64,000 bases of DNA from a bacterium. Its GTDB lineage: Bacteria; UBA8248; JACPRG01; G963555815. The DNA lies in NCBI GenBank assembly GCA_963555815.3, contig CAUVWX020000001.1, positions 1,355,665 through 1,419,664 on the forward strand. Reading direction: 5' to 3'. Under the pieces are notes generated by a model, which worked only from the letters and a program-made list of their open reading frames with translations, was not told the origin of the DNA and ran no database searches. A program made the translations under genes and the position numbers. The first letter of the stretch is position 1. Every line of letters begins with the position of its first letter. Of this stretch, positions 29,704 through 64,000 are shown in pieces.

Positions 29704-30012
<309 letters not shown>

Positions 30013-36051: not shown

Positions 36052-36111
36052 GCGCAAAAGAGGCGCCGTCAAGTTTTAGTTTAAGTTCTATAACCCAGGG
36101 AGGAAGGGGAA

Positions 36112-36951: not shown

Positions 36952-36979
36952 TGACCAACTGTCCAGGGAGGGACTCACG

Positions 36980-37576: not shown

Positions 37577-37667
<91 letters not shown>

Positions 37668-42516: not shown

Positions 42517-42831
42517 CAAAAACCTCAATCGAGATCTATTAACATCCTAGAATCAGCTGCCGGTGCGCGACATCGCCGAGGATCCACCGAAGGATTGGAC
42601 AGGGTTGACCAACGGTGGAGGAACCGCTCTCGTGAAGCGAAGTCGCATGGCGACAACATTCCGGCTCTTGAAAGCTTTAATGTTGAACCTGATCGGTTCC
42701 AGTGCAGGATTTTTTTGGCGCATTTGGCAAAACCCTCGGGTCATAAGCGGACCATTCGGGGAATCTAGTCACCGCTCGGCGGATTATCGAACTGATGATT
42801 CCGGCGGTAATGTTCGTTACGGCTCCAATGT

Positions 42832-43912: not shown

Positions 43913-45027
43913 GGCGTTGGTGCATGAATCGGAACTGGCCCGCAACGAACCCGACTCACAGGTCCATCACCTACCAAGAGCGTACGACGATGGCCTACCG
44001 CGCTCGGCCATCCGGTTGAGGATGTGACACCCGATCGCGGCTTCTCTGCGTTGCGCCTTGCCGTGCCTCGCCTTCAGGTCGCCTCCGAACACGGACTTGT
44101 ATCGGAAGAAGCTGTTTTCAACGCGCGCCTGCTGTCGGTAGCCCGACTCCTTCTGCCACTCCCGTCGCCCGACCTTGCGAATCCTCTGAAGAGACGCTGT
44201 CACGCTGCGCCCAGGGGCCGTCGGTGGGCACCGCCGACAGCGCAGAGCGACGAGGGGGGATCACAATCACGACGTTCTCTGTACCGGCCGCGCTGGCCCG
44301 ATCGTAGACCGATCTGTGGTCGTAGGCCCCGTCCGCCGTGAAACGCCGGATGGGAACTTCGAGCGGGGCGAGAAGATCAGGGAGTGTGGAGGCGTCGTCC
44401 CGGCTGCTCGCTGTGAGTTCGGCCGCCACAATGAACCCCTCCGCATCCACTCCGATGTGCAGCTTCCGCCAATCCCGGCGTTTCTTTGATGTCTTGTGCT
44501 TGTGCGCGTTCCATTCGCCGCGACCCAGAATCTTGAGCCCTGTGGAATCAACGATCAGGTCGATCGGGCCGTCGTGGGCTCGGGTCAGGGGCGGCACCAC
44601 AACAATTTGGTTCCGGCGCGAGAGGGTGGTGTGGTCCGGGGCCTTGAGGTCGTGGCTCCATCAAGCGGAGCAGCGAGTCCAGGAACCCCTCCGTCTGGCG
44701 AAGCGGTAGGCCGAAGACGACCCGCAGCGTCAACGCGGTCCGGATCGCGAGGTTCGAGTTATCGACGCTGCCCTCCGCGGAGACCGTTCTTCGGTGGTAT
44801 CCACGCGGCAATCGCATCCTCGCTCAGCCAGATCGTGACGTCTCCGCGGCTCCTGAGGCCACGCTCGTACTCCCTCCAGTTCCGGATTCTGTACTTCGCC
44901 TTGTACTGGCGGTTGACTCGGCTCGACTTCCCTGCGGCCATGACGTTGCCCCCTTGATCTCCATGATGGACCGGAACCCTCCGCCGATGCTAGCGTGCCC
45001 GCTTACGCCGATTCATGCACCAATGCC
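43913..45027 (-). mobile_element. IS5-family (IS903-like) insertion sequence, copy 1, with a frameshifted transposase
   Basis: TIRs GGCGTTGGTGCATGAATCGG / CCGATTCATGCACCAATGCC. Transposase motifs NWREYE..L..RG, DSTGLK, WRKLH, ADGAYD, RVEN. Confidence 0.92.
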
Positions 45028-45399
45028 GCCCTGGAGGACAAGTCCGGAGTGGACGTGGAGATGATCATAGAAGAATAAGGGCCAGCCCGGTGTGCTAGAA
45101 AGGGAGGGGTCGCGAGGCAAGTTCAGCGACCCGGTCCCCTGATTATCAAGACATCACTATTCTAGTACGCTGGGCCTTTATGAGGAGGAGTCATGAAACA
45201 AAAGCCTAAGACCGTTGAGCTAGTGAAGTCCACCTATCAGCCGAAACACCAAGGCCGAGCAGGAGGAGGAGTTCCGGGCGGGGGCCTCCATGGAGGAGAT
45301 TGCCGATGCTGTCCTGAGCCCGGTCAACGTCCGATGGATTGATAAGCCCCGCAACCGTAGGAAGCGGTAGGGGTTTCGGGACTTTTAGATATAATCCCC
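45028..45399 (+). mobile_element. probable IS1595-family (ISNwi1-like) end remnant with a small passenger ORF
   Basis: Ends in ATATAATCCCC (reverse complement GGGGATTATAT). A short frameshifted ORF at 45193-45370 (MKQKPKTVELVKSTYQP...PVNVRWIDKPR) follows a strong RBS. Confidence 0.45.
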
Positions 45400-45477
45400 A
45401 TACGTTAATGAGGATGCAGAACAGCTACGACATCGCCCAGAACCGTTGCATGAGTCTTCTTCAGAGGGTGTGTCGCT

Positions 45478-48400
45478 TTGACTAACCCATTCTTCGACCA
45501 TCCCATCCTGAACTCGCCCTACGAGCCCCCACAGCGGCACTGGGAGCTGGACTCCCAGGGGCAGCCGACCCAGCAGGTCTTGGAACGCCGTCGGCGCGCC
45601 GAGTTCATCACACCGATCCCGAAGCCGAAGAAGCGAAAAAAAGCCCGGCAGCAGGCCGCAATGGTGTTCGACGAAGGGAAGGGTCTCTCCACTAAGGAGC
45701 AGCAATACGATCCGACCTCCATCATCAATGAAGTGCGTCAGAACGTGGATCGGTGGCGGGCCTTGCCCAACCTAGCCCAGTGGCAGGTCAGCCCGGAAAC
45801 GGCGCGCTTGCTCCAGCACTGGCGGCACCACCCGTTCGGCAGCATCCGCCCGTTCTTTTGTCAGGTGGAAGCCGTTGAAACCGCGATTTGGCTAACCGAG
45901 GTTGCGCCGCACTTCAAGGGCGGAAAACGATTGCTCGGCCACTTGGCCAGAGCCAACAAGGACGCCAATCCAGAATTGATGCGCCTCGCGCTGAAGCTAG
46001 CCACCGGGGCTGGCAAGACAACTATCATGGCCATGTTGATCGCCTGGCAAACGGTCAATGCGGTCCGCCATCCCGCCAGCAAACACTTCACCCGAGGTTT
46101 CCTGGTCGTAGCCCCCGGCCTGACCATCAAGGATCGGCTCCGCGTCCTCCAGCCGAACGACCCAGACAGTTACTACGCCAGCCGCGAACTTGTGCCGCAC
46201 GACCTGCTCGACGACGTTAACCGCGCCAAGATCGTCATCACCAACTACCACGCCTTTAAGTTACGCGAGCGCATCAAAATATCTTCCAGCGGACGCGCGT
46301 TGCTCAAGGGCCGTACCGGCGACGAGCTGCACACCACTGAGACCGAAGGCCAGATGCTCCAGCGTGCCATGCCTGATCTGATGGGCATCAAGAACATCCT
46401 CGTGCTCAACGACGAGGCGCACCATTGCTACCGCGAGAAGCCACCGGAGCCGGACGATGCGCATCTGAAGGGCGACGACAGAAAAGAGGCCGAAAAGAAC
46501 AACGAAGCAGCCCGCCTCTGGATATCGGGTCTCGAAACCGTGAATCGTAAGCTCGGCCGCTCTCGTGTGATCGACCTGTCTGCCACACCCTTCTTTCTGA
46601 GCGGGTCCGGCTATGCCGAGGGCACACTCTTCCCATGGACGATGAGCGACTTCTCGCTGATGGACGCCATCGAGTGCGGTATCGTTAAACTGCCGCGCGT
46701 CCCGGTGGCTCAAAACATCCCTGGCGACGAAATGCCCGTCTATCGCAACCTCTGGGAGAACATCCGCAAGGAGATGCCCAAGAAGGGGCGCGGCCAGGGC
46801 GGAGAACTCGACCCACTCAAACTGCCGACCCGGTTGCAAACCGCTCTTGAGGCGCTCTACGGGCACTACGAGAAAACCTTCAAACTATGGGAAGAGAAGG
46901 GCATTCGTGTGCCGCCCTGCTTCATCATCGTTTGCCAAAACACCGCCATCTCGAAGCTGGCCTATGACTTCATCTCCGGTTTTCAACGAAAGAACGAAGA
47001 CGGGACCACCACACTGGAAAACGGTCGCTTGGCCCTCTTCCGAAATTTCGATGAAACCACGGGGAATCCGCTCGCGCGTCCGAACACATTGCTGATTGAC
47101 AGTGAGCAGTTGGAAGCTGGCGACGCCCTCGACGATAAGTTTCGTGGCATGGCCGCCGATGAGATTGCCCGTTTCCGCCGCGAGATCATTGAGCGCACCG
47201 GGGATGCCCGTGCAGCGGACAACCTCAGCGACCAGGAGTTGCTGCGTGAGGTCATGAACACCGTGGGCAAGCACGGCCAACTCGGCGGCTCCATCCGCTG
47301 TGTCGTCTCTGTGTCCATGCTGACGGAAGGCTGGGATGCGAACACCGTCACCCACGTCCTCGGCATCCGCGCTTTTGGCACCCAGCTCCTCTGCGAACAG
47401 GTCATCGGACGCGCGCTTCGCCGCCAATCCTACGACCTCAATGAAGAAAACCTCTTCAACGTTGAATATGCAGACATCTTCGGCATTCCTTTCGACTTCA
47501 CGGCCAAACCCGTTATCGCTCCCCCGCAGCCGCCGCGTGAGACGGTTCAGGTCAAGGCCATGCGCCCGGAGCGAGACGGCCTTGAAGTCCAGTTCCCTCG
47601 CGTCGAAGGCTACCGCGTCGAACTGCCCGAGGAGCGCCTCACGGCCGCCCTCACCCCCGATTCTATTCTCGAACTCAGCCCCGATCTGGTTGGCCCGTCC
47701 ATCACACGGAATGCGGGAATCATCGGCGAAGGCGTGGATCTGAACCTGGAGCATTTAGGGGACATGCGGCCGTCCACGCTGCTCTTCCACGTCACCCAGC
47801 GCCTGCTCTACACGAAATGGCGCGATCCGGGGGAAGAGCCGAAGCTCTATCTGTTTGGCCAGCTCAAACGCATCACGAAGCAGTGGCTCGACACCTGTCT
47901 CGTCTGCAAGGGCGCCACTTATCCCGCCCAGCTGATGTATCAGGAGCTGGCCGACATGGCGTGCAACCGCATCACCGCTGGCATCACCAGATGCGTTGGA
48001 AGATCACCGCCCCATCAAAGTCCTGCTCGACCCCTACAATCCCACCGGCTCCACGGCCCATGTCAGATTCAACACGTCCAGGGCGGACCGCTGGGACACC
48101 AGTGGTCCGCCGCCCAAGAACCATGTCAACTGGGTGGTGCTCGACAGCGACTGGGAAGCTGAGTTCTGCCGCGTCGCCGAGTCTCATCCGAAGGTCGTGG
48201 CCTACACAAAGAACCACAACTTGGGCCTCGAAGTGCCGTATCGCTACGGTTCCCAGCTACGGAAGTATCTACCCGACTTCATCGTCTTGGTAAACGACGG
48301 CCACGGCCACGGCGACCTGCTGCGCCTGGTCGTCGAGATCAAGGGCTATCGGCGCGAGGACGCGAAGGAAAAGAAGTCCACGATGGATACCTACTGGGTG

Positions 48401-48556
48401 CCCGGCGTGAATAATCTCAAGACGTATGGACGCTGGGCCTTCGCCGAGTTCACCGAGGTCTACATGATCGAGACCGACTTCGCGGCGAAGGTCGGAGACA
48501 AGTTCGACAAAATGATCGACACCGCGACCGCATATCCGATGACTAGGGACAGCTAG
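45478..48556 (+). CDS. type III-like restriction endonuclease/SF2 helicase subunit (BPTD_3080-like), frameshifted near 47990
   Basis: LATGAGKT, NDEAHHCY, LSATP, MLTEGWD, QVIGRALRR. The PD..EIKG nuclease domain lies in the next frame (47996-48556). Confidence 0.88.
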
Positions 48557-48558
48557 CT

Positions 48559-51493
48559 ATGGCCAAGAGGCGCGGCACTCGCAAGACCGTCGAAACAATC
48601 ACGCACGACGAGTCCAAGCGGAAGAACATTCCATCTGCCGAGCATCAGTCCGTGCTCCGACCAGACGATGCCACGCCACGGCCGGTGAAGTATCCACGGA
48701 ACACCGATCTCGACCCCCAGTTCGTCTGGCGTGGGAAGGATGAGCAGGACTGGAGCGATCTCGTTGTCTACGCCCCGCCGCTCTACATTCAGGAAAAGGT
48801 TCATCCGAAGGTATTGATCGACGATCTCCTTCGGCAGACAAAAGAAGCACAAACGGAGGCCATCGGAGCACAGACCAACCTCTTCGCCGACTTCAACGGT
48901 ATTCCAGATGGAGTTGACAGAACTGAGTTCTACCAACACGACCAGAACTGGTCGAACCGCATGATCCTCGGTGACTCCCTCCAGGTCATGGCCAGTCTGG
49001 CCGAGCGCGAGGGCCTGCGCGGCAAGGTGCAGTGCATCTACCTCGACCCGCCCTACGGCATCAAGTTCAACAGCAACTTTCAGTGGTCCACGACCAGCCG
49101 CGACGTCAAGGACGGCAAGGCGGATCACATTACACGCGAGCCGGAACAAGTGAAGGCGTTCCGGGACACGTGGCGGGATGGGATTCACTCTTATCTGACG
49201 TATCTGCGTGACCGACTGACCGTGGCACGGGACCTGTTGACGGAGAGCGGCTCGATCTTCGTTCAGATTGGAGACGAGAATGTTCACCGAGTGCGGACGC
49301 TGATGGAGGAGGTGTTCGGGGAGGATAATTTTGTCAGCGAAATCATCGTCAGCACGACGACTAGCGCAACTTCGCGTTATCTAGCAGGAACTTGCGATTA
49401 CATTCTTTGGTCTGCGAGGAACTATAAGACGTTGAAATATCGCCAGCCGTTCCGTGAAAAGAAAGCGGGCGAGGCAGGAGCCGCCTTATATAACCGCATT
49501 CAAAGTATTGATGGCGGCACCGTTCGCACTTTGTCCAAGAATGAGGATTACGAGCGAGATATTTCTCCCGATGATTGGCATCTCGTAACATCCGACAACT
49601 TCTCATCACAGTCAGGAGGAAAAACGACACGACAACCAGTTCTATTGAAAGGTGAGTCATATAGCCCGGCGACTGGGGGATGGAAGACGAACTCGGAAGG
49701 CGTGAAACGTTTAATCGCAGCATCTCGTTTGGCGAAAGGTGGACGAGCCGTGCGGTATATTCGCCGTATCCAAGATTTTCCTGTCTCTCCCATTGCAAAT
49801 GTCTGGGATGACATGTTGACAGGTAGTTTCACTGAAGAAAAACTCTACGTAGTGCAGACCGCTGCCAAGCTAGTCCAACGCTGCATCCTGATGACCACTG
49901 ACCCGGGTGACCTCGTGCTTGACCCGACCTGCGGTTCCGGCACCACCGCCTATGCCGCCGAACAATGGGGCCGCCGCTGGATCACCATTGACACTTCCCG
50001 CGTTGCCTTGGCCCTCGCCCGCGCCCGCATCATGGGCGCGCGCTATTCTTACTACCTGCTCTCCGACAGCCGCGACGGGCAACTCAAAGAAGCCGAGATC
50101 GCTAGCAGGGCACCCGCCGACACGCCCACCTACAACAACATTCGACAGGGGTTCGTGTACGAGCGGGTACCCCACATCACGCTCAAGTCCATTGCCAACA
50201 ACGCCGAGATCGACGTGATCTGGGAGAAGTGGCAGGAGATGCTGGAACCGCTACGCGCAGAACTGAACGCCTCCCTCAACCGCGACTGGGAGGAGTGGGA
50301 GATTCCCCGGGAGCCGGGCGACCCGTGGTCCGCAACAGCGACGGCGGCGTGGAGCAAGTTCCAGGCGGGGCGCACGAACGAAGCAAAGTCGGCGGCGCTT
50401 TGCGTGTTGAACCAGGAGTTGGGCCGAAATTACGCACTGGCTGACGTGCCCGATCGGCCTCGAAACCCGTGGGAGTCCACTCCCACCAACCTCCACCGCC
50501 GCTGGTGGGAACAACGCATCGCCCGGCAGAAGGAGATCGACGCCTCCATCGCCGCTAAGGCCGACTACGAATACCTCTACGACAAGCCTTACGAGGACAA
50601 GAAGAAGGTCCGTGTCGCCGGACCTTTCACGGTCGAGAGCCTAAGCCCCCACCGCATGCTTGGCGTGGGTGAGGACGATGAATTGATCGACATCGGGAAG
50701 GAAGACAGCATCGCATACGGAGCAAAGCAATCCTTCCCACAGATGATCTTGGAAAACCTCAAAACCGTCCGGTGTGCAGCAAGCGCACAAAGAGGACCGG
50801 ATTGCCTTCACCGCCCTCACCCCGTGGCCCGGCGAGTTGGTCTGCGCGGAAGGCCACTACCCCGAAGGCGAAACTGAGAAGCGGGCCGCCATCTTCATCG
50901 GCCCCGAGTTCGGCACCGTGCAACGCGCCGATCTTGTCGCCGGAGCCCGTGAGGCCGGCGATGCTGGGTTCGATGTGTTGATCGCCTGCGCTTTCAATTA
51001 CGAGGCCCACGCCACGGAATTCAGCAAGCTGGGACGCATCCCCGTGCTCAAAGCCCGGATGAACGCCGACTTGCACATGGCCAAGGATCTCAAAAATACC
51101 GGTAAGGGAAACCTGTTCGTCATCTTCGGCGAACCAGACATTGAACTCCTGCCGGAGCAGGATGGCCGATTGCGCGTGAAAGTGAAGGGCGTCGATGTCT
51201 TTGTCCCCAGCACAGGAGAAGTCCGTAGCGACGGCGCCGATGGCATCGCCTGCTGGTTCATTGACACCGACTACAACGAGGAAAGCTTCTTCGTCCGGCA
51301 GGCCTACTTCCTCGGCGCCAACGACCCCTACAAATCCCTCAAGACTACTCTCAAGGCTGAAGTCAACCGGGAAGCCTGGGAAACACTCCACAGCGACACC
51401 TCCCGGCCGTTTGACAAACCAAAATCCGGGCGGATCGCCGTGAAGGCGATCAACCACCTTGGCGATGAAGTGATGAAGGTGTTCAAGGTCTAG
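48559..51493 (+). CDS. adenine-specific DNA methyltransferase (type III Mod-like), frameshifted near 50770
   Basis: NRMILGDSL, YLDPPYG, VLDPTCGSGTT. The C-terminal domain (IGPEFG, WFIDTDY, IAVKAINHLGDEVMKV) is in the next frame. Confidence 0.88.
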
Positions 51494-51497
51494 CCCT

Positions 51498-53609
51498 ATG
51501 GACTTCCGTATCGCCGACACTTTCACAGGCAGTCTTGCCAGATTAACGGGCGACGAGCAGAAGGCTGTCAAGACGACGGCCTTCGACTTACAGCTCAGCC
51601 CCGCCAATCCTGGTATGAGCTTCCACAGGCTCAACAAGGCCAAAGACAAGGACTTCTGGTCGGTGCGGGTTAGTGATGACATCCGGCTGATCGTGCACAA
51701 GAGCGAGATTAGCCTCCTGCTCTGCTATGTCGGCCATCACGACAAGGCGTATGACTGGGCGGAACGGCGGCGGCTGGAGGCACACCCCAAGACGGGTGCC
51801 GCCCAGCTCGTGGAGATTCGAGAGACCGTTCAGGAGATTCTCATCCCGACGTATGTGGAGGCTCCGAAGCCAGCGGTGGCCAAGCTGCCACTGCTGTTTG
51901 CGGGCATGTCCGATGACGATTTGCTGACCTACGGGGTACCCCCGGAGTATCTGTCAGACGTGCGCCAGATCGACGAGGACAATCTCCTGTCGATGGCCGA
52001 CCGACTACCAGCCGAGGCCGCCGAGGCGCTCTTGGAACTGGCCACTGGCGGCAAGCCGCTTCCACCTCAGCCGGGCTCGCCGACGATGAATCCGCTCGAT
52101 CATCCCGACGCGCAACGCCGATTCCGGGTGATGAGCAGTGTCGAGGAACTTCAGCGCGCCCTGGAGTTCCCGTGGGACAGGTGGTCGGTGTTCCTCCATC
52201 CCGAGCAGCGGCAGCTGGTTGAACGGGACTACACCGGGTCCGCGAGGGTTTCCGGCTCCGCCGGCACGGGGAAGACGATTGTGGCGCTGCATCGCGCCGT
52301 CTTCCTGGCCCGCGCCAACCAGAATGCGCGCGTCTTGCTGACGACGTTCTCGCACATGCTGGCGAATGCCCTCCGCACCCAACTCAGGCGACTCATCAGC
52401 AACGAGCCGCGCTTGGCAGAGCGACTGGAAGTCCATTCGATCAACGCTACCGGAGAGCGCCTCTACAAGTCCCACTTCGGTCAGATTAATCTGGTGCCGC
52501 TAGAGGTCGTCCAAGAATTGTTGCGGGTTGCCAGCGAACGTGGAGAGAACCACAAGTTCAGTGGGAGATTCCTGCTCACCGAGTGGGAGCAGGTTGTTGA
52601 TGCGTGGCAGTTGGACACCTGGGAAGCGTATCGAGATGTCGCACGCCTCGGTAGAAAAACGCGGCTCCCAGAAGCCCAGAGGGAGATCCTCTGGTCAATG
52701 TTCGAGCAGGTCCGAGCGGGCCTTGCGGCGCGGAACATGATCACGCGCTCAGCAATGTTCACGAAGCTGGCGGCAGCCGTTGCGGAAAGTAGGAACCCGC
52801 CGTTTGACTTCGCCGTGGTCGATGAGGCGCAAGATATCGGAGTGGCCCATCTCCGATTCTTCGCAGGGCTCGGTCGGCATCGGTCCGACGCGCTTTTCTT
52901 CGCTGGCGACCTCGGCCAGCGCATTTTCCAGCAGCCGTTCTCGTGGTTGGCCTTGGGTGTGGATATTCGGGGCCGGTCGAAGACGTTGCGGGTCAATTAC
53001 CGCACGTCGCATCAGATCCGGGTGCAGGCGGACCGACTGATCGGTCCCGAGGTGTCCGATGCCGATGGCAACAGGGAGGAGCGACGCCACACCGTCTCCG
53101 TCTTCAATGGCCCGGCACCGGAGATTCAAGTTCTGCGCAGCCAAGAAGAAGAAGTTGAACACGTTGGCCAGTGGTTATCAGGACGTGCGAAGGACGGTGT
53201 CGCGCCCCACGAGTTTGGTGTTTTCGTGCGATCCGCCGCAGAACTGGGCCGCGCACGGTTGGCTGTGCAGCTCTCTGAACTCCCGTTCAAAATTCTAGAT
53301 GAAAACGTCGAAACCACCAGCGGTCACATCTCGATTAGCAACATGCATCTCGCCAAGGGGCTAGAGTTCCGAGCCGTCGTCGTGATGGCCTGCGACGATG
53401 AAATCATCCCGTTGCAGGAGCGCATCGAGACGGTCGGCGACGACGCGGATCTGCAGGAGGTTTATGATACCGAACGTCATCTTCTATATGTCGCCTGTAC
53501 GCGGGCCAGAGACCACCTGCTTGTCACCAGCGTCACGCCAGCATCGGAGTTTCTCGATGATATGCAAGGTGCGGGTATGGCCGCAACACAGGTTAGTGAG
53601 TCAGTTTGA
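51498..53609 (+). CDS. SF1 (UvrD-like) helicase with an N-terminal RelE/ParE-like domain
   Basis: N-terminus F..SL..L....QK.V....NPGM.FH.L....WSVRV..DIRLIVH..LCYVGHHD.AY, then GSAGTGKT, VDEAQD, GDLGQRI, NYRT, AKGLEF, LYVACTRAR. Confidence 0.88.
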   Translation: MDFRIADTFTGSLARLTGDEQKAVKTTAFDLQLSPANPGMSFHRLNKAKDKDFWSVRVSDDIRLIVHKSEISLLLCYVGHHDKAYDWAERRRLEAHPKTGAAQLVEIRETVQEILIPTYVEAPKPAVAKLPLLFAGMSDDDLLTYGVPPEYLSDVRQIDEDNLLSMADRLPAEAAEALLELATGGKPLPPQPGSPTMNPLDHPDAQRRFRVMSSVEELQRALEFPWDRWSVFLHPEQRQLVERDYTGSARVSGSAGTGKTIVALHRAVFLARANQNARVLLTTFSHMLANALRTQLRRLISNEPRLAERLEVHSINATGERLYKSHFGQINLVPLEVVQELLRVASERGENHKFSGRFLLTEWEQVVDAWQLDTWEAYRDVARLGRKTRLPEAQREILWSMFEQVRAGLAARNMITRSAMFTKLAAAVAESRNPPFDFAVVDEAQDIGVAHLRFFAGLGRHRSDALFFAGDLGQRIFQQPFSWLALGVDIRGRSKTLRVNYRTSHQIRVQADRLIGPEVSDADGNREERRHTVSVFNGPAPEIQVLRSQEEEVEHVGQWLSGRAKDGVAPHEFGVFVRSAAELGRARLAVQLSELPFKILDENVETTSGHISISNMHLAKGLEFRAVVVMACDDEIIPLQERIETVGDDADLQEVYDTERHLLYVACTRARDHLLVTSVTPASEFLDDMQGAGMAATQVSESV

Positions 53610-53667
53610 ATTCGACGGTCTTTGGAGTTGCTCGTGTGTCCAGCGCCAATCAATTTTCCCTTCATAT

Positions 53668-53921
53668 CTAGGGTAGCGACCAGATTACTGTTGAAATACA
53701 ACATAAGGCCGGTCGGGCCTTATGTTCAGCTTGGGACGATCTTTCGAGTCTCGCGATGAAGTGGTAGAGGGCAGAGCGGGAGACGTCCAGGATCTTGGCA
53801 ATGGAGGCCTTTGAGACATTCTTGCCCAGCAGCACTCGGATATCTTGCTCCTTGTCATCGAGCCTGGATTTTCCTAAGGCCCCCTTAGGCCGTCCGAGCA
53901 GCTTCCCTTGGGCCTTCGCGG
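53668..53921 (-). pseudogene. C-terminal HTH fragment of a small resolvase/invertase, truncated by IS copy 2
   Basis: AKAQGKLLGRPKG...VSKASIAKILDVSRSALYHFI begins exactly at the IS terminal repeat. Confidence 0.75.
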
Positions 53922-55034
53922 GGCGTTGGTGCATGAATCGGAACTGGCCCGCAACGAACCCGACTCACAGGTCCATCACCTACCAAGAGCGTACGACGAT
54001 GGCCTACCGAGCTCGGCCATCCGGTTGAGGATGTGACACCCGATCGCGGCTTCTCTGCGTTGCGCCTTGCTGTGCCTCGCCTTCAGGTCGCCTCCGAACA
54101 CGGACTTGTATCGGAAGAAGCTGTTCTCAACGCGCGCCTGCTGTCGGTAGCCCGACTCCTTCTGCCACTCCCGTCGCCCGACCTTGCGAATCCTCTGAAG
54201 AGACGCTTCAGGCTGCGCCCAGGGGCCGTCGGTGGGCCCCGCCGACAGCGCAGAGCGACGAGGGGGGATCACAATCACGACGTTCTCTGTACCGGCCGCG
54301 CTGGCCCGATCGTAGACCGATCTGTGGTCGTAGGCCCCGTCCGCCGTGAAACGCCGGATGGGAACTTCGAGCGGGGCGAGAAGATCAGGGAGTGTGGAGG
54401 CGTCGGCCCGGCTGCTCGCTGTGAGTTCGGCCGCCACAATGAACCCCTCCGCATCCACTCCGATGTGCAGCTTCCGCCAATCCCGGCGTTTCTTTGATGT
54501 CTTGTGCTTGTGCGCGTTCCATTCGCCGCGACCCAGAATCTTGAGCCCTGTGGAATCAACGATCAGGTCGATCGGGCCGTCGTGGGCTCGGGTCAGGGGC
54601 GGCACCACAACCATTTGGTTCCGGCGCGAGAGGGTGGTGTGGTCCGGGGCCTTGAGGTCGCGGCTCATCAAGCTGAGCAGCGAGTCCAGGAACCCCTCCG
54701 TCTGGCGAAGCGGGTAGGCCGAAGACGACCCGCAGCGTCAACGCGGTCCGGATCGCGAGATTCGAGTATCGACGCTGCCCTCCGCGGAGACCGTTCTTCG
54801 GTGGTATCCACGCGGCAATCGCATCCTCGCTCAGCCAGATCGTGACGTCTCCGCGGCTCCTGAGGCCACGCTCGTACTCCCTCCAGTTCCGGATTCTGTA
54901 CTTCGTCTTGTACTGGCGGTTGATTCGGCTCGACTTCCCTGCGGCCATGACGTTGCCCCCTTGATCTCCATGATGGACCGGAACCCTCCGCCGATGCTAG
55001 CGTGCCCGCTTACGCCGATTCATGCACCAATGCC
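53922..55034 (-). mobile_element. IS5-family (IS903-like) insertion sequence, copy 2, in direct orientation to copy 1
   Basis: Same TIRs and near-identical sequence to 43913-45027. The transposase is split near 54712. Confidence 0.92.
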
Positions 55035-55780
55035 GGATATAGGTGATGTCGGCGCACCAGACCTGATTGGACCGGTTGATCGACATGCCCTTGAGCAGAT
55101 AAGGGTAGACCCGGTGCTCGGGATGCGGATTCACTGGTGCGTGGCGCCCGGTAGATCGCCTGAAGCCCCAGCAGGCGCAGCAAACGACTGGCCCGGCGAC
55201 GACCGATGCGCACACCCTCAAGGCGCAGATGACGCGCCCATCTGGCGGGCTCCGTAGAACGGATGCTTCAGGAACAACTCATCGATGCGCTGCATTAGCG
55301 CAAGGCTCTCCGCACTCTCGCCCTTGGGCGTGTAATAGAGCGAGGATCGCCCGATCGATAGCAAACGGCATTGACGGCTCAAACTCGGCCCAGGGTGAGG
55401 GCGCGTCACCATCGCCCAGCGCTCGGCCCGGCTCATCGACCGGACCCGCTGGACAAAAAATCCCGTTCACCCGTCAATTCTCCGATCTTGGCGTGAAGCT
55501 CATGGACCTCGCTTTCATGGTCTCGCCGACGGCGGTCCACACCGTTCGAGAACACCTCGCCAAGCCCTTCGATCGCCTGGCGCTTCCATGTGCTCACCTG
55601 GTTCGGATGAACCTGGTGCTTCGAGGCAATCTCCTGCAGCGTCCGGTCGCCCCGAAGCGCTTCCAGTGCCACCTTCGCTTTCAAGTCACCAGAAAACCTG
55701 CGTCTCCTCCTCATCGCATACCCCTCCTTCGTCGGTGGAATACACCTTAAACAATTGTCCGATTTTCCGGGGCCACCTCA
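55035..55780 (-). mobile_element. IS3-family element, truncated (orfA and the 5' part of orfB)
   Basis: Left end TGAGGTGGCCCCGGAAAATCGGAC. OrfA RRRFSGDLKAKVALEA..VHPNQVSTWK. OrfB LS.SRQC.LL..YGAR..YPYLL..NQVWCADITYI is cut by IS copy 2. Confidence 0.88.
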
Positions 55781-55845: not shown

Positions 55846-56178
55846 ATGGGACACTTGAGCACATTCGGCCGGATCATTGCGGACGCGCGCAAGGCGCTCG
55901 GCATGAGCCAGAAGGAATTGGCAGCGAGAACACGTAAAGAAGGCGGGGGTGCGATCTCGCCGCAGTATCTCAACGACATCGAACACGACCGACGAAATCC
56001 GCCGTCGAAGTACATCATCGAGCAGCTCGCAGGACATTTGGGGCTCTCGAAGGAGCCTCTGATCGCCGCGGCGGGTCTCTGGCCAACGGACCTGCGGGAG
56101 GAGCTCCCGGGGTCTGATCCGCAGCGAGTCGAGAAGGCCTTCACTGCTTTTCGGAAGGTGCTCAAGGACAAGCCATGA
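55846..56178 (+). CDS. XRE-family helix-turn-helix regulator
   Basis: FG..I..ARK..GMSQKELA...ISPQYLNDIEHDRR.P. Confidence 0.92.
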   Translation: MGHLSTFGRIIADARKALGMSQKELAARTRKEGGGAISPQYLNDIEHDRRNPPSKYIIEQLAGHLGLSKEPLIAAAGLWPTDLREELPGSDPQRVEKAFTAFRKVLKDKP

Positions 56179-56202
56179 ATCCGAGATCAAAGGACTATCG
56201 CC

Positions 56203-56904
56203 GTGAAATGGGTGCGTGACAACTCCGGGCGGTTTCGAGAGCGACCACACTACCATCCCGACGAGCTCGAACAGCTCTGTGAGGATACGATGACTCGCTT
56301 TCTGTGGGACCGTCACGGCAGGGTGGCCTTCCCGGCCAGCACTGAGGACCTCACGGTCCTCCTTGAGCGGGAGGTCGACGATCTGGACAATGGCTGCGTG
56401 CTCGAGGACGGTGTCGACGGGTTGACGGATTTCTTCCCGCGAAGGAAGCCGCACGTCAAGATCGCCAGTCGTCTACAGGCACCCAATTACGAAAATCGCC
56501 TTCGCACGACACTCACGCACGAATACGGCCACGTGCTTGTGCACGGCTTCCTGTTCGCTCTGGAGGACGGACTCGGAAGGTTGTTCGCGGGCGAGCCGCG
56601 GAAAACACGCAACACCTGTCACAGAGACGCGATCGCCGCGCCCAGCAGCGACTGGATGGAATGGCAGGCGGGGTACGCCTGTGGGGCGTTGTTGATGCCA
56701 AGAACCGAACTTGTGCGGGTTGTCCGGGCGTTCCGTGCCAGCGAAGGCCTCATGTACAGCAACATAGCCGTCGGATCGGAGGCCGGGCAGGCCATGATCG
56801 ACCGCATCGCGGCGGCGTTTCACGTGTCCCTCGAGGCTGCGCGAGTGCGACTGGAACAGCGGCGAATATTGGTCAAGACGGCGGTTCCTGGTTTGTTCGG
56901 CTAG
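56203..56904 (+). CDS. ImmA/IrrE-family zinc metallopeptidase
   Basis: R.RTTLTHEYGH, EWQA...GALLMP, F.VS..AARVRL. Confidence 0.88.
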   Translation: MKWVRDNSGRFRERPHYHPDELEQLCEDTMTRFLWDRHGRVAFPASTEDLTVLLEREVDDLDNGCVLEDGVDGLTDFFPRRKPHVKIASRLQAPNYENRLRTTLTHEYGHVLVHGFLFALEDGLGRLFAGEPRKTRNTCHRDAIAAPSSDWMEWQAGYACGALLMPRTELVRVVRAFRASEGLMYSNIAVGSEAGQAMIDRIAAAFHVSLEAARVRLEQRRILVKTAVPGLFG

Positions 56905-56961: not shown

Positions 56962-57115
56962 GGAGGATGAGATCAGAAGGGCGACCGCCTCGGTCCATCG
57001 GGACTCTAGCGGCCGCTAAGGACGGAACGACGACGTGAACCCATTAGGAGGAAGAGCAATGAATGCAGGTAGGAAGATCTTGCGGGGTGTTCATAGATCT
57101 TGATAAAGGTTTTTG

Positions 57116-58507
57116 ATGAAGGAAACAGCGAAAGCGGAAACCCCGACGCGCCCGACGTCCGATTGCGCCCCCAGCCGGCCGTCGATCACCTATCAGTCGA
57201 TATTGGCCCTCCAGCCTGACGCGCGCAATCCGCGGACCCATAGTAAACGGCAGATCCGGCAGATCGCCGACAGCATCCGCGCGTTCGGTTTCACCAACCC
57301 GATCTTGGTCGACGAGAAGGGAAGCGTGATGGCCGGGCATGGGCGGCTGGAGGCGGCGAAGTTGCTCGGCATCCGTCAGGTTCCCACGATCCGCATTGGC
57401 GACCTGACCGAGGCGCAAAAGCGCGCTTACGTCATCGCGGACAACAAGCTGGCGGAGAACGCCGGGTGGGACAGCGAGCTGTTAACCGAGGAGCTTCGGT
57501 TCCTGACGGATCTGACGCTGGGTTTCGACGTCACCGTCACCGGTTTTGAGATGGCCGAGATCGATCTCCTACTCGATGAGGCGCGGTCGGGCGAAGAGAC
57601 GGATCCGGCCGACAAGCTGCCCGCTATCGACGACGCGCCGCCGGTTTCGCGCATCGGCGACCTGTGGCGCCTGGGGGCCCACCGGTTGCTGTGCGCCGAC
57701 GCCAGGGATCCTTCTGCGTTCGAGCGGCTGCTGGGCGGGGAAAAGGCCGGGCTGGTTTTCACCGACCCGCCCTACAACGTGCCGATCCGCGGCAACGTCT
57801 GCGGCAGAGGCCAGGCGCGCCATGGAGAGTTCGTCATGGCCTCGGGCGAGATGTCCGAGCGGGCCTATACGGATTTTCTGGGGAAAGCGTTTCGAAACCT
57901 TGCCGAGCATAGCCGCGATGGCTCGATCCACTATGTGTGCATGGACTGGCGTCATCTCGGCGAGGTGCTCGCGGCCGGCCAATCGGTCTATTCGGAGCTC
58001 AAGAATCTGTGCGTTTGGAGCAAGACCAACGGCGGTATGGGCTCGCTCTACCGTTCGCGGCACGAACTGGTCTTCGTTTTCAAGCATGGCGCGGCGCCCC
58101 ACATCAACAACATCGAACTCGGCCGCCACGGGCGGAACCGGACCAACGTTTGGGAGTATGCGGGCGTCAATGCGTGGGGGCCGGACCGTCTGGACGATCT
58201 CGCTCTGCATCCGACGGTCAAGCCGGTGGCGATGATCGCCGACGCGATCAGGGATTGCTCAAGACGCGGCGGAATCGTACTGGATGGCTTCGCCGGCTCG
58301 GGCTCGACGTTGATCGCGGCCGAGCGCACCGGGCGGCGCGGGTTCGGCATCGAGCTGGACCCAAAGTATGTCGACGTCGCCATCGAGCGCTACGAGCGGC
58401 TGACCGGTCACTCTGTGGTTCACGCTGCCAGCGGGACGGCCTTCGCCGAGATCCGGCCAAGCCGCCGGTCGACCGACACCTCCCGACAAAATGCAACGGA
58501 TTCATGA
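57116..58507 (+). CDS. ParB-N-domain DNA methyltransferase, paralogue of 41161-42516
   Basis: Same architecture: NPRTHS, FTDPPYN, HPTVKP, LDGFAGSGST. Confidence 0.92.
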   Translation: MKETAKAETPTRPTSDCAPSRPSITYQSILALQPDARNPRTHSKRQIRQIADSIRAFGFTNPILVDEKGSVMAGHGRLEAAKLLGIRQVPTIRIGDLTEAQKRAYVIADNKLAENAGWDSELLTEELRFLTDLTLGFDVTVTGFEMAEIDLLLDEARSGEETDPADKLPAIDDAPPVSRIGDLWRLGAHRLLCADARDPSAFERLLGGEKAGLVFTDPPYNVPIRGNVCGRGQARHGEFVMASGEMSERAYTDFLGKAFRNLAEHSRDGSIHYVCMDWRHLGEVLAAGQSVYSELKNLCVWSKTNGGMGSLYRSRHELVFVFKHGAAPHINNIELGRHGRNRTNVWEYAGVNAWGPDRLDDLALHPTVKPVAMIADAIRDCSRRGGIVLDGFAGSGSTLIAAERTGRRGFGIELDPKYVDVAIERYERLTGHSVVHAASGTAFAEIRPSRRSTDTSRQNATDS

Positions 58508-58509
58508 CG

Positions 58510-58923
58510 ATGGCTGGAGAGTACGAAGTCGGCTACCGCAGACCGCCCAAGACAACGCGGTTCAAGCCCGGCCAATCGGGCAATCCCAAGGGCCGTCCCG
58601 CCAAGGCGCGCAACTTCAAGAGCGACGTGAAAAAGACGCTTGAGACCCCCATTCGGCTTGTCAAGGATGGCAAGCCGCAGACCGTGTCGACCCAAGAAGG
58701 GGTGCTCCTGCGCTTGCGTGAGAAGGCGCTCAAGGGGGATGCCCGATCGATGGATCTCCTGGTGGAGCTCGCGCAAGCCTACAACGCGGAAGAGCTGGCC
58801 ACGGCCGCCGGCGGCGTATTGGGCGCGTCGGATCAAGAGATTCTCGAAAACTACCGAGAGCGGGTTTTGCGTCAGGGGACAAATGCTGAAGCGAACGAAC
58901 CGGAGGAGCCCGGCGATGCCTGA
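58510..58923 (+). CDS. DUF5681-like protein (candidate terminase small subunit)
   Basis: YEVGYRRPP..TRFKPGQSGNPKGRP. Overlaps the start of the terminase gene. Confidence 0.82.
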   Translation: MAGEYEVGYRRPPKTTRFKPGQSGNPKGRPAKARNFKSDVKKTLETPIRLVKDGKPQTVSTQEGVLLRLREKALKGDARSMDLLVELAQAYNAEELATAAGGVLGASDQEILENYRERVLRQGTNAEANEPEEPGDA

Positions 58924-60349
58924 CGCGAGCGTCCTGGCGGCCGCGATGCGGTCGGATCTGGCGGCGTTCATCCAGAAAGCGTTCCAGACGGTCTCGCCGG
59001 AGGACAGATACCGGCACAACTGGCACATTGAAGCCATCGCCTATCAATTGGGCCGTTGCTTGGATCGCCAGTGCCGGCGCCTGATCATCACGCAACCGCC
59101 CCGCTCCCTGAAATCGATCTGCGCATCCGTCGCTTTCGTCGCCTGGGCCTTGGGCCGCAACCCCAAGCTGCGCTTCATCTGCGTGAGCTATTCCGACGCC
59201 CTGGCGGCCGCGCTGGCCCGGCAATTCCGGCAGGTCGTCAACAGCGGCTGGTACCGCGCCCTTTTTCCGGGCACGCGGCTTAGCAAAGACGCAGGGACCG
59301 AATGCGTGACGACCGTGGGCGGGGGCCGCCTGGCGACCTCCATCGGCGGCACCCTGACCGGACGGGGCGCGGACATGATTATTGTCGACGATCCACTCAA
59401 GGCCGAGGATGCCAGCTCCAAGACCGTCCGCGACGATGTCAACGAATGGTATACGACGGCCCTGGTCTCCCGCCTCAACGACAAGGCGCGCGATGTGATG
59501 ATCGTCCTCATGCAGCGGCTGCACGAGGACGATCTCGCCGGCCATTTGCTTCAAAGCGGCACGTGGCACCATTTGAACCTTCCGGCCATCGCCGAGGAGG
59601 ACCAATCGATCGCCCTGGGGCCGGAACAGACCCACGATCGCAAGCGCGGCGATGTGCTTCATCCCGGGCGGGAATCGCTTCAGACGCTGATGCGCATCAA
59701 GGAGGAAGTCGGTAGTCTCACCTTTTCCGCGCAATACCAGCAAAGGCCCGTGCCCCATGAGGGCAATCTGATCAAAAGAGAATGGCTGAAGTACTACGAC
59801 CAGCTACCGGAGCGGGACATCGGCTGGCAGATCGTGCAAAGCTGGGACGTGGCCACGACGGTCAACAAGAGCAGCGATTACTCTGTGTGCACGACCTGGG
59901 CGGTGCACCGGCAAACCTGCTACCTGGTCGAGGTGTGGCGCGGCCAGCGGGATTACCCGGGCGTCAAGCGCGCCATCGTCCAGCGGGCCCTGGCTCAACG
60001 CGTAAACACGATCCTGATCGAAAAGGCGGGGCCGGGGCTGCACCTGGTTCAGGAGCTGCGCCACAACGGCGACGCGCGTGTGCCGGCTCCCATCGGCATT
60101 CAGCCGGAGGGCGACAAGCTGTCGCGCACCGAGGCTCAATTGACGGATTTCGAGTCGGGACGAGTCATCCTTCCCAGGCACGCGCCCTGGCTGGGCGAGT
60201 TTCTCAATGAGCTGCTCGCCTTTCCCAACAGCCGGCACGACGATCAGGTCGACAGCGTCACGCAGTTTCTCGGTTGGCAGCGGGGCCGGCAACGCAGGCA
60301 CCGCCGGATCTCCCCCGTGGCTCCCACCCTGGTACTCATGGAGGGTTGA
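58916..60349 (+). CDS. phage terminase large subunit
   Basis: ATPase motifs LIITQPPRSLKS, IIVDDP, MQRLHEDDL, AQYQQRP; RNase H-like nuclease QSWD..DYSV..IEK..FPN..HDDQVDS. Confidence 0.9.
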   Translation: MPDASVLAAAMRSDLAAFIQKAFQTVSPEDRYRHNWHIEAIAYQLGRCLDRQCRRLIITQPPRSLKSICASVAFVAWALGRNPKLRFICVSYSDALAAALARQFRQVVNSGWYRALFPGTRLSKDAGTECVTTVGGGRLATSIGGTLTGRGADMIIVDDPLKAEDASSKTVRDDVNEWYTTALVSRLNDKARDVMIVLMQRLHEDDLAGHLLQSGTWHHLNLPAIAEEDQSIALGPEQTHDRKRGDVLHPGRESLQTLMRIKEEVGSLTFSAQYQQRPVPHEGNLIKREWLKYYDQLPERDIGWQIVQSWDVATTVNKSSDYSVCTTWAVHRQTCYLVEVWRGQRDYPGVKRAIVQRALAQRVNTILIEKAGPGLHLVQELRHNGDARVPAPIGIQPEGDKLSRTEAQLTDFESGRVILPRHAPWLGEFLNELLAFPNSRHDDQVDSVTQFLGWQRGRQRRHRRISPVAPTLVLMEG

Positions 60350-60542
60350 CTCCAACGCGTCTGAAACCCGCTGTTTCTGACGACGATGAGCGTGTTGAGG
60401 CGGCGGTCCGGGGGAGGGAGTTCGCCTCAGACGTGTTGGTCTGGTCGCCCATCCTCCCCCAGCACGATTGATCTTCACTTTCGGACTAGACTTCCACCGG
60501 GCAACGGAGCGTCAATGGAGGTGACCCGGGCGGCAATCATCG

Positions 60543-61031
60543 ATGACGAGCCTGCCCGGAGGAGGCCACAAGATGCCGACGATCGAGACCCAGATGACCG
60601 AGATCCAGGAGATGGACCTGCCGGCGCTGCGCGATGCATGGCGGCGCCATTACCGGGTGCCCCCGCCCCGGCGACTCAGCCGTGACCTGCTGATGCGCGC
60701 CGTCGCCTATAAGCTCCAGGAACAGGTCCACGGAGGGCTCTCCAAGGCGGCGCGGCGGCGGCTTCGGGCCCTGGCCCAGGCCTTCGCCGAGACCGGTCGG
60801 GTCGCCCCGGACAACGGCACCAAGGTGCGCCCCGGCACACGGCTGGTGCGCGAATGGCGAGGCCGCACCCATGTCGTCACCGCGACGGAAAGCGGCTTCG
60901 ATTACGACGGGGAGGCCTATGGTTCCTTGACCGCTATCGCTCAACGCATCACGGGCGCGCACTGGTCCGGTCCTCGCTTCTTCGGCCTGCGGCCTTCAGG
61001 CGAGAGCGCATCGGCGGCGGAGCATGGCTGA
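60543..61031 (+). CDS. DUF2924-like protein (copy 2)
   Basis: Near-identical to 39672-40160. Confidence 0.88.
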   Translation: MTSLPGGGHKMPTIETQMTEIQEMDLPALRDAWRRHYRVPPPRRLSRDLLMRAVAYKLQEQVHGGLSKAARRRLRALAQAFAETGRVAPDNGTKVRPGTRLVREWRGRTHVVTATESGFDYDGEAYGSLTAIAQRITGAHWSGPRFFGLRPSGESASAAEHG

Positions 61032-62779
61032 GCATCGGAAATCACCACGGGCGAGGAGTCTGGCCACGGTGCGCTGCGCCATCTACACCCGCAAATCCTC
61101 CGAAGAAGGCCTGGAACAAGACTTCAACTCGCTGCAGGCGCAGCGGGAGGCCTGCGAGGCCTATATCGCGAGCCAGAAGCACGAGGGCTGGATCGTGCTG
61201 CCCACCTTTTACGACGATGGCGGTGTCTCCGGCGCCACCCTGCAGCGGCCGGCGTTGCAGCGTTTGCTCGGCGATGTCAAGGTCGGGCGGATCGACACGA
61301 TCGTCGTCTACAAGGTCGACCGGCTGACCCGGACGCTGTCGGATTTTGCCCGGCTTGTGGAGATTTTCGATCGAAAGGACGTCTCCTTCGTCTCCGTCAC
61401 CCAGCAGTTCAACACCACCACCTCGATGGGGCGTCTGACCTTGAACGTCCTGCTCTCCTTCGCCCAGTTCGAGCGCGAGGTCACGGGCGAACGCATCCGC
61501 GACAAGATCGCCGCCTCGAAGAAGAAGGGGATGTGGATGGGCGGCAACCCGCCCTTGGGCTACGATGTGAAGGACAAAAAGCTCATCGTCAACAAGGCCG
61601 AGGCCGAAACGGTCCGGTCTATCTTCCGCCAGTACCGGGAAATCGAATCCGTGCGTGAACTGCGCGACCGGCTCGCCGCCGAAGGCGTCACCAGCAAGCG
61701 GCGAGTGAGGCGCGACGGCAGTATTGTCGGCGGCAAACCCATCAACCGGGGGGCGCTTTATCACCTGCTCCACAATCGCCTCTACCGGGGCGAGATGGTC
61801 CACAAGGACAAGGCCTATCCCGGCCAGCATGAGGCCATTGTCGATGAAGCGCTGTGGGATGAGGTTCAAGCCACCCTGGCCGCCAACACGAACGGCGAGC
61901 GCCGAGAAGGGACCCGGCAACCGAGCCTGCTGACGGGGCTTGTCGTTGACGAGCAGGGCGAGGGCCTCTCACCCAGCCATGCCGTCAAGAAGGGACGGCG
62001 CTATCGCTACTACGTCTCCCGCCATCTCATCCTGGAGGGCAAGCGAGCCGGCCGCAAGGGGTGGCGCCTCCCGGCGGCGGATCTCGAAGGCCTCGTTACT
62101 GTCCGTCTCAGGGACTGGCTCGCTGATGCGGCCGCGATCAGCGCTGTCATCGATGGAGACCCTCAAGAGGCCTCGGCTCATGCCCGCTTGATCACCCAGG
62201 CGCAATCGCTCGCGGACCGGTGGCCTGAGCTGAAACCGCACCAGGCCAAGGCCTATCTCAATGCGCTTCTCCGGCGGGTGATCGTCGAGTCCGCCCGCAT
62301 CGTGATCGAGATCGACGGCGAGCGGGCCCTGGCCACCCTCCTGGCAGGACCGGACGTCGTCTCAATAAAAAGATCGAGGCAGGACGCTCAGCCAGCCAAA
62401 CATCCGATCATCCTGGATATTCCAATCGCCCTTAAGCGCGCTGGCACGGGCATGAAACTAGTCGTCCCCGGCGCCCGCAACAATGCCAAGTGCGCCCCGG
62501 GCCTGCTCCGGCTGCTGCTGCGCGCCTTCGCCATCCAGGATCGATTGGAGCAAAACCCCGAGCTCACCCTGCAGCGGATCGCCGAGGCCGAAGGCGTCTC
62601 ACCTTCCTATGCCACCCGGTTGCACTGCGTCTTGAGCTACCTTGCCCCGGACATCGTCACTGCCATCGTCGACGGGCAGCAACCGCCCGAGCTGACCGCC
62701 GAAAAGCTCATGAAGAAACACCCGCCTGCCGTTCAGGTGGGAAGCCCAGCGAAAGCGGCTTGGGTTCAAGCACGCTTGA
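61024..62779 (+). CDS. large serine recombinase (copy 2), with indels near 62625 and 62715
   Basis: Near-identical to the left LSR. The homologous C-terminus AQRKRLGFKHA* ends at TGA 62779 in a shifted frame. Confidence 0.92.
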
Positions 62780-63041
62780 CCTCTGATCCATCCCAAGCCG
62801 CGGCCGGTTCTGTCGCTGGGCACAGATCAGAGAGAGCCGTGTCAACCGATGACGCCCTCGAAACCCGTACCACTAAAAAGGGCTTGAGAGACGGGCGTGT
62901 GAAAACGGTACGCCAACGCCACGCAGAAGCGTCTCTGCCAACCGAAGCCCCTCACCAGAGCATCGGCAAGCGCCCGGGATTTGGGCGGAAAACGGGGACG
63001 AGATCCACAAAAAACGTAGCAATATCAGAGATATAAGGGCG

Positions 63042-63131
<90 letters not shown>

Positions 63132-63408
63132 GAAACCTGCCCAATAGCATAGCATTTCCTCCATGCCCAGATGTTGTATTTTCCAGCCGCCCCGCCCGAC
63201 ACCAGGGGGAAACATCATTCTATGAGGAAGGCACCGACGGGGTAGATGGGAGAATAGAGGTAGGGATGCCCGCCCGACTCAGGATAGTGAGATTTCCTTG
63301 TCGAATGGGGACAGCTCGACTGGAGGCGTTAGCGGGCTAAACTTGAGTATTGAGCAGTACCAGAACAGCTGCAGCCAGGGTTATGATAAGTTCAAAATGG
63401 AGGTATCA

Positions 63409-64000
63409 ATGACAGACAGCATTCGAGTGGCTGCTGGCAGTATTCGAGATGCCACCGACGAAGTCCTCACGTTCGTGGCCCAGATGGGCTGTAGCGGAGT
63501 TATCCTGAATACACCGGCACTCACTGGACAAACTCCCTTCGGCTCCAGCCCGGTCGGTGCTACCTACTGGCACGATCCAACAGCAGAGAGCGCACCAGCG
63601 CGTTGGACTTCCTGGAACTACTCCAGCTCCGGACCCGGATCGAGTCGTATGGCTTGCGTCTCGAGGCTATTGAAAATGTTCCCCTCCACTTCTACCAGAA
63701 GTGCATTCTGGGGTTACCCGGAAGAGATGAACAGATCGAGAACTACCAGGAAACGATCCGGAACCTGGGACGGGCTGGGATCCCCATCCTGGGGTATCAC
63801 TGGATGGCCAACAGCGTCTGGCGTACGGCCAAGCATGAGCCGACGAGAGGCGGAGCCAGGACCACAGTCTATGACCACGCCCTGGTCGAGGACTCCCCAA
63901 TGAGCTTTGGACGGGAGTACACCGAAGAGGAACTGTGGGCGAACTACGAGTACTTCATTCAATCAGTCCTCCCGGTCGCCCAGGAGTCCGGAGTCACCCT
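63409..64000 (+). CDS. uxuA: mannonate dehydratase family protein, partial, frameshifted near 63606
   Basis: After the shift: GLRLEAIENVP..LGLPGRDEQIENYQETIRNLGRAGIPILGYHWM..EELWANYEYFI..VLPVA. Confidence 0.8.

Follow-up and report, generated by a model that had tools for sequence, protein, structure and literature searches.

Headless terminase islands at tRNA gene ends: a candidate satellite-like family carrying its own packaging genes

Why should a bacterial chromosome carry an intact terminase large subunit (TerL) beside a site-specific recombinase at a place where no phage head gene can be recognized? This question is raised by a 64,000-nucleotide stretch of DNA, here called the window, from a bacterium of the GTDB lineage UBA8248 (contig CAUVWX020000001.1, positions 1,355,665 to 1,419,664). 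The original prediction had placed in the window a co-oriented ParB-methylase, a DUF5681 protein, an intact TerL, and a DUF2924 protein with a large serine recombinase (LSR). All five open reading frames (ORFs) were found on one strand, with overlaps of 4 bp (ParB-methylase/DUF5681), 8 bp (DUF5681/TerL) and 8 bp (DUF2924/LSR). The analyses described here indicated that this module, termed copy A, belongs to a real, widespread and apparently undescribed family of headless terminase islands. The best explanation, to which we give a rough probability of 0.55, is that these are satellite-like islands, stacked in tandem at tRNA ends with defence cargo, whose own small (TerS) and large terminase subunits package them into helper phage capsids. 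Copy A and its target comprise the following features.

57113-58507, + strand: ParB_N plus N6_N4_Mtase protein (PF02195, PF01555, phrog_498)
58504-58923, + strand: DUF5681, predicted small terminase subunit (PF18932)
58916-60349, + strand: TerL with ATPase and nuclease motifs intact (PF17289, Terminase_6C; phrog_38, E 1e-109)
60543-61031, + strand: DUF2924, likely DNA-binding partner of the LSR (PF11149)
61024-62779, + strand: LSR with Resolvase and Recombinase domains (PF00239, PF07508); ORF extended to 63036 by a frameshift
62780-63047, + strand: recombinase-side arm with the 6-bp core TGGCGG (core 63042-63047), common to copies B and C and to Acidobacteriota loci
63042-63131, - strand: tRNA-Ser(GGA) targeted by copy A and foreign to the host

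The methylase carries DPPY and DGFAGSG motifs. Relative to its sibling, the LSR has a +1 frameshift near 62713, and alignment with copy B put the homologous stop at 62777-62779; a sequencing error is possible because public contigs also show indels near this C-terminus. The LSR ends ~260 bp before the 3′ end of tRNA-Ser(GGA), which lies on the opposite strand. Contigs from RNA runs span the module, a coverage that is no proof of transcription.

Do homologous modules usually sit inside complete prophages? With TerL as the query, the best 80 of at least 556 GTDB matches and the best 80 of 284 IMG/VR matches were taken as the 160 nearest loci, and at least 2.5 kb of downstream sequence was present for 67 and 41 of these, respectively. 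TerL was accompanied by the methylase and DUF5681 in 68/80 GTDB and 65/80 IMG/VR loci, and by DUF2924 and the LSR within the fetched flank in 36/80 and 62/80. A portal or major capsid gene was detected in 0/160 loci (0/80 in each set), indicating that residence in complete prophages is not the rule. The host genome had no matches to PF04860 or to 10 portal/capsid seed proteins, and its sole match to phrog_38 was the TerL of copy A. PHROG scans were performed on 193 proteins (118 + 75) of the GTDB loci, chiefly co-oriented ORFs of at least 240 aa drawn from ~745 unassigned genes, and on 63 more. No portal or major head protein was found among these 118, 75 and 63 neighbour proteins, and the same library detected such proteins in control prophages. 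Tail and virion genes were present, upstream, at only one of the scanned loci (L055); "tail" labels at L038, L047 and L050 were not accepted as virion genes, as they stood without other structural genes alongside. In a scan of 288 TerL loci with 10 seed profiles, DUF5681 and portal/capsid genes never co-occurred.

Record titles placed the family in Alpha-, Beta- and Gammaproteobacteria, Acidobacteriota, Nitrospirales, Myxococcota, Isosphaeraceae and Spirochaetaceae, and carriers include cultured Bradyrhizobium, Methylobacterium and Microvirga. The idea of a recurring capsid-less element type, as opposed to prophage debris, was thus upheld by co-occurrence across the 160 loci, the lack of portal and capsid genes and the retention of TerL motifs. 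The description of the module as a minimal mobile unit had to be abandoned, the module being the core of cargo-bearing islands of 19-73 kb.

Neither relaxed selection nor loss of catalytic residues was apparent in TerL. Residues R63, K66, S67, D158, D159, D311, D321, E369, D443 and D446, which we take to be Walker A/B and RNase H-like acidic positions, were retained in 155-156 of 156 sequences, and the DD form of Walker B is also present in the solved structure 8dgc. Near-full-length TerL in a single frame was seen in 75/80 GTDB matches (4 were broken and 1 lay at a contig edge), a proportion biased by the use of TerL as the query. A crude ratio of nonsynonymous to synonymous substitution (dN/dS) had a median of 0.14 at dS 0.15-0.6 (12 disjoint pairs), compared with 0.13 for the LSR (2 pairs), indicative of purifying selection. 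The terminase slot can also be refilled: five IMG/VR contigs (L264, L276, L284, L292 and L294) had a phrog_2 TerL of 412-415 aa in the same position, with no blastp similarity to the element TerL, and three of the five keep the repeat arm described below. Among 161 evenly sampled Alphaproteobacteria, a phrog_2-type TerL (E<=1e-20) was detected once, as a partial match.

These data bear on a possible origin of the islands as decayed prophages that have lost their head and tail genes, a proposal which is largely refuted and which we regard as very improbable. In its favour, provirus G211 combines the methylase, a DUF5681-like gene, DUF2924 and the LSR with a lambda-like terminase, portal and capsid, plausibly the ancestral state. 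A DUF3489-DUF2924 pair adjoins a head module in L236, L055 has its upstream tail genes, and Krupovic et al. read the archaeal element NitKor-E1 as a relic (PMC6563490). The 161 Alphaproteobacteria contained 19 TerL matches (E<1e-90) in 16 genomes, 14 with an adjoining DUF5681 gene and 13 within 28 kb of DUF2924; three of the 19 were in prophages with portal and capsid, but these three had no DUF5681, methylase or DUF2924. Besides the absence of portal and capsid genes from the 160 nearest loci, whole units bounded by both ends were free of structural genes. The best cultured-phage TerL was 39% identical. In a FastTree phylogeny of 161 sequences, the 112 element TerLs formed a single clade (support 0.62) that no portal-linked sequence entered, and an IQ-TREE phylogeny of 42 of those TerLs put 16 portal-linked sequences in one 100/100 clade containing no element TerL. 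No portal-linked TerL grouped with an individual element TerL, and both trees argue against repeated decay from the sampled prophages.

The host genome (G000; 2.08 Mb, 95.7% complete) contains three copies, at tRNA-Ser GGA, CGA and GCT. Copy A alone has terL; in the other two, B and C, the methylase and DUF5681 are retained along with a 68-bp tail of terL. The original prediction had counted two siblings as support; the conservation of gene order stood, but the sibling that it cited has lost terL.

37577-37666, + strand: tRNA-Ser(CGA) of the host, targeted by copy B, with the core CCGCCA at 37661-37666; the site is empty in the same-genus genome G001
37928-40160, - strand: copy B LSR (37928-39679) and DUF2924 (39672-40160), from Pfam and alignment
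40437-40504, - strand: copy B 3′ remnant of a deleted terL, 82% identical to 60259-60326, reading as the TerL C-terminal tail
40775-42528, - strand: copy B DUF5681 (40775-41164) and ParB-methylase (41161-42528), from Pfam
G000:C1:688650-695006: third, terL-less copy (copy C), from sequence match

At the empty site of G001, the tRNA runs directly into sequence matching G000 C2:1888 onward. The attachment sites attB, attL and attR of copy B were reconstructed and have in common the 6-bp core TGGCGG, the tRNA end CCGCCA. A long duplication of the tRNA 3′ end was looked for as an attachment site and was absent. The LSR is transcribed outward, toward the tRNA; a tRNA lay within 5 kb of 23 of 69 full-length recombinases and was a tRNA-Ser in 17 of the 23. 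The far end is a 210-bp arm of CAGGGAA repeats; counts of ACAGGGAA in two such arms were 4-6, versus a genome background of 0.03 per kb. A profile detected this arm in 41/178 loci, 0.5-2.4 kb before the methylase in 16, whereas none of 65 portal-linked loci had it. The idea that the arm folds as an RNA was rejected (-1.1 kcal/mol, compensatory pairs absent); the arm is, therefore, likely to be a DNA array for protein binding. Lambda cosB has three TerS sites (PMC9026076), to which the CAGGGAA arm may be a parallel. No far-end arm of copy A or C was found in the genome, the sole match (C2:1692-1893) being part of island B, and no terminal repeats of at least 15 bp were present among the 80 IMG/VR loci. 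One contig of run X4 (depth 59) links the two arms, recombinase-side and far-end, which fits excised circles and tandem arrays alike.

Several variations of this layout were observed. In L091, L114, L125, L131, L137, L151 and others, DUF2924-LSR points away from methylase-TerS-TerL, and the arm adjoins the LSR in several of these. The slot between arm and methylase holds variable uncharacterised genes of 140-250 aa (window 42832-43419 and upstream of the methylase in L003, L026, L028 and L077), none with a Pfam or PHROG match. Island B has, immediately within its far-end arm (G000:C2:180-1430, L174), a probable toxin-antitoxin pair and a fragment with no Pfam match that we take to resemble phage late-control protein D. 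The loci L396, L398 and L401 are terL-less with two tandem DUF5681 genes. Genes for a RecE-like exonuclease, an Erf-like annealing protein or both lie after TerL or ahead of DUF2924 in L015, L016, L022, L029, L030, L084, L107, L118 and L235, and could circularise packaged linear DNA.

Junctions of the two arms were also found within assembled genomes. The G042:C4 contig has eight such junctions, all on the same strand, over 353 kb, with spacings of 19.2, 40.0, 45.7, 52.6, 52.7, 69.6 and 72.9 kb. Shorter arrays in G041 and G042:C3 end at tRNA-Ser and have single units of 34.0 and 28.2 kb, respectively. A typical headful is ~45 kb (PMC12829572). The arrays mix TerL-bearing, broken and TerL-less units. 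Cargo was examined by Pfam scans of 72 proteins (70 from array units) and PHROG scans of 110 of 148 selected proteins. Type I and GmrSD restriction, DUF499-DUF1156-SNF2, HerA, reverse transcriptases, KAP NTPase, a MazF-like toxin, AIPR, ThiF, LRR/WD40/fn3 proteins and many insertion sequences were detected, together with a single partial MobA and a single RepA_C; neither scan detected head or tail genes. The eukaryote-like LRR, WD40 and fn3 cargo is at L199:3114-5465, L217:17287-18111 and L218:1-3432. No conserved replication cluster was present in 80 loci, four intact units had no replication genes except for the one RepA_C, and no relaxase was conserved across loci.

The dominance of restriction and other defence genes in this cargo, and the absence of conserved replication genes, would also suit a terminase pair that acts as an anti-phage device within a defence island, jamming portals or cutting phage DNA, with no packaging of the island. 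Such a device, which we consider improbable, leaves three features unexplained: unit sizes that resemble a headful, a repeat arm where the island ends, and the fixed link to the recombinase.

What could the two uncharacterised proteins contribute? The prediction of DUF5681 as the TerS is drawn from gene order: its gene directly precedes terL in the element loci, and a homologue in Leptospira phage LE3 directly precedes terL and portal. A fold search gave no clear match (NV1 TerS ranked 20, with Z 3.5, root-mean-square deviation [rmsd] 5.4 and 52 aligned residues). A DUF5681 protein is listed in a Salmonella phage particle proteome (PMC8954984). PDB sequence searches with DUF5681 and DUF2924 gave nothing useful. 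The DUF2924 model has a SAP/HeH-like helical N-domain and a RAMA-like C-domain, with middling matches to the CcrM C-domain (Z 5.9, rmsd 3.6, 61 aligned) and to MPND (Z 5.7, rmsd 4.0, 63 aligned); RAMA (PF18755) was matched by 9 of 30 DUF2924 members (best E 5e-4). DUF2924 is a likely DNA-binding partner of the recombinase. A complex prediction for LSR and DUF2924 scored 0.04, uninformative either way. RAMA has been predicted to read N6-methyladenine, and a role in packaging is predicted for the methylases of ParB-terminase loci (PMC4738411). Hypothetically, DUF2924 might read the element's own methyl mark.

In the satellite-like reading, the LSR would integrate and excise the island with DUF2924 as a putative accessory, DUF5681 would bind the CAGGGAA arm as a pac- or cosB-like site, and TerL would cut at the arm and dock on a foreign portal. 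The methylase would mark the DNA, a mark perhaps read by the RAMA-like domain. Copies with only TerS and methylase would borrow the TerL of a sibling or helper, in the manner of phage-inducible chromosomal islands (PICIs). An Xre repressor and IrrE/ImmA-type peptidase pair, found in some copies, is likely to be a damage-inducible switch; it precedes copy A in the window and the module in L001, L002, G042:C3 and L387.

55846-56904, + strand: Xre repressor plus IrrE/ImmA-type peptidase pair

Several observations weigh against packaging into helper capsids. No trace was seen of a particle, a helper, an excised circle or a cut site, and 5/5 IMG/VR records checked were labelled "linear". With no conserved replication gene, a source of enough element copies is hard to explain, and transfer among distant hosts fits poorly with the host range of a single helper. 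The assignment of TerS depends on gene position. The Walker A motif of TerL has Leu instead of Gly in 145/156 sequences, its overall median dN/dS was 0.34 (54 disjoint pairs), with values of 0.28-0.74 among near-identical copies, and IQ-TREE nested the phage clade among element TerLs with weak root support, so that element monophyly was not recovered. Parts of the module also occur in a small number of genuine prophages. Copy B (37928-42528) kept its gene order with terL reduced to the 68-bp remnant, and such terL-less copies have themselves spread, copy B being 93% identical over 6 kb to Acidobacteriota (G041) copies whose hosts' DnaX is 38-40% identical to that of this host. In the 161 Alphaproteobacteria, DUF2924 occurred in 38 genomes (a tally that includes the unpublished G077), and only 13 of 65 DUF2924 matches had a full-length TerL of the element clade within 30 kb. 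Among metagenome contigs of at least 4 kb with DUF2924, 0/25 carried the methylase, DUF5681 or TerL (55 shorter contigs were dropped).

The last three points also favour an account in which the DUF2924-LSR tRNA island is the mobile unit and travels by vesicles, transformation, generalised or lateral transduction or conjugative helpers, with methylase-TerS-TerL as an optional passenger or a device for processing its own ends. The partial MobA and the RepA_C of the array units suit this account, as does the use of DUF2924-LSR as an integration module by phages AcaML1 and WO. It is harder to reconcile with the conservation of both TerL domains, the refilling of the slot by another TerL family, the fixed place of the packaging block after the arm and the lack of a relaxase conserved across loci, and we judge it unlikely. 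Of 73 DUF2924-anchored IMG/VR loci, 34 had the element TerL, 5 the phrog_2 TerL and 2 (L236 and L289) phage structural genes. Doubled DUF3489-DUF2924-LSR/DUF2924-LSR cassettes, with packaging genes not nearby, were seen in L226-L228, L238-L241, L257, L258, L303 and L305.

Does copy A belong to this host? The tRNA-Ser(GGA) beside it matches the host's at 71/90 bases and Acidobacteriota loci at 84-85/90. The flank beyond it had a depth of ~5 in run X1, in which host genes at 24400-37400 were essentially uncovered, and depths of 14 (X4) and 10 (X12) versus host depths of 5 and 4. Across three public runs, depth over the end of the window (63042-64000), which comprises this tRNA and a uxuA fragment, departed from that of the host, making a chimeric contig end probable. 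Because of the tRNA match to Acidobacteriota and the deviant depth, copy A and its flank probably derive from another community member, through a recent capture or a chimeric join close to the end of the contig. The element itself is real, since copies 95-97% identical to copy A are present in several Acidobacteriota assemblies. The DNA between copies B and A is cargo.

43913-55780: type III restriction-modification genes and a gene for a UvrD-like helicase between two near-identical DDE insertion sequences, followed by an insertion sequence fragment

The genome has three related type III restriction-modification loci (window 45478-53609; G000:C1:279911-288286 and 696127-701722), with frameshifted res and mod in the window copy. 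The DDE insertion sequence (window 43913-45028 and 53922-55035) reached depths in the thousands in sponge-type runs and is 97-98% shared with Acidobacteriota loci.

Are these islands a known kind of satellite? PICIs, including the Staphylococcus aureus pathogenicity islands (SaPIs), use a tyrosine integrase, and a small terminase or Rpp to redirect the helper's TerL. They resemble the islands in being integrated and headless and in tandem forms, and may also do so in small-terminase redirection, for which DUF5681 is a candidate by position, and in lateral cotransduction (PMC12829572; bioRxiv 10.1101/2020.12.28.424599); the terL-less copies come closest to them. The islands differ in having an LSR, their own TerL and a methylase, in lacking a primase/replicase and in a unit size of 19-73 kb versus 10-20 kb. 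Capsid-forming PICIs (cf-PICIs) carry their own terminase pair, as the islands do, but also their own portal, protease and capsid. Tycheposons (bioRxiv 10.1101/2020.12.28.424599) and virion-encapsidated integrative mobile elements (VEIMEs; PMC9618062) likewise integrate at tRNA ends, build islands and carry cargo, some with serine recombinases or TerS. In the available text of these sources, 910/937 elements of the tycheposon study use tyrosine recombinases, the packaging genes are TerS or capsid only, with TerL assumed to come from the helper, and a ParB-methylase/DUF2924 core does not appear. The tycheposon integrase is lineage specific, mostly a tyrosine enzyme and inward facing, whereas the island LSR faces outward to the tRNA. 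NitKor-E1 shares TerS-TerL without other virion genes, and toxin-antitoxin and restriction cargo, but is a single archaeal element with a tyrosine integrase and a probable relic; its authors called it "enigmatic" and stated in 2019 that a terminase had not previously been identified in non-viral mobile elements (PMC6563490). A ParB-methylase adjoins the terminase in phage ParB-terminase loci, with predicted DNA modification during packaging (PMC4738411), and DUF2924 directly precedes the LSR in AcaML1 and WO; these are complete phages with head and tail genes, and AcaML1 has no repeat arm. Tailed prophages have portal and major capsid genes downstream of terL; these were detected in the control prophages but in none of the 160 nearest loci. 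The islands thus fall outside PICIs, cf-PICIs and tycheposons, and the family was not described in the literature searched, although subscription journals and supplements outside that search could hold it.

How chromosomal defence islands move is described as an open question (PMC12829572, PMC11389934), and the island family is a concrete candidate vehicle with defined ends. A bolder version, which we put forward tentatively as rather doubtful, is a new class of satellite that lacks both shell and replicon yet brings its whole packaging motor, itself exchangeable, and a methyl mark of its own. Capsids of unrelated phages would be filled with defence islands of 20-50 kb, perhaps taken directly from the tandem arrays in the chromosome. 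Defence genes would in this way pass from phylum to phylum, arrays of hundreds of kb would grow at tRNA ends, and the RAMA-like DUF2924 would couple recombination to methylation state. The family also suggests what DUF5681 and DUF2924 may do, and it supplies a recombinase whose core at the tRNA end is 6 bp long. Furthermore, many short IMG/VR records are these islands, indicating that a TerL match alone is no proof of a virus.

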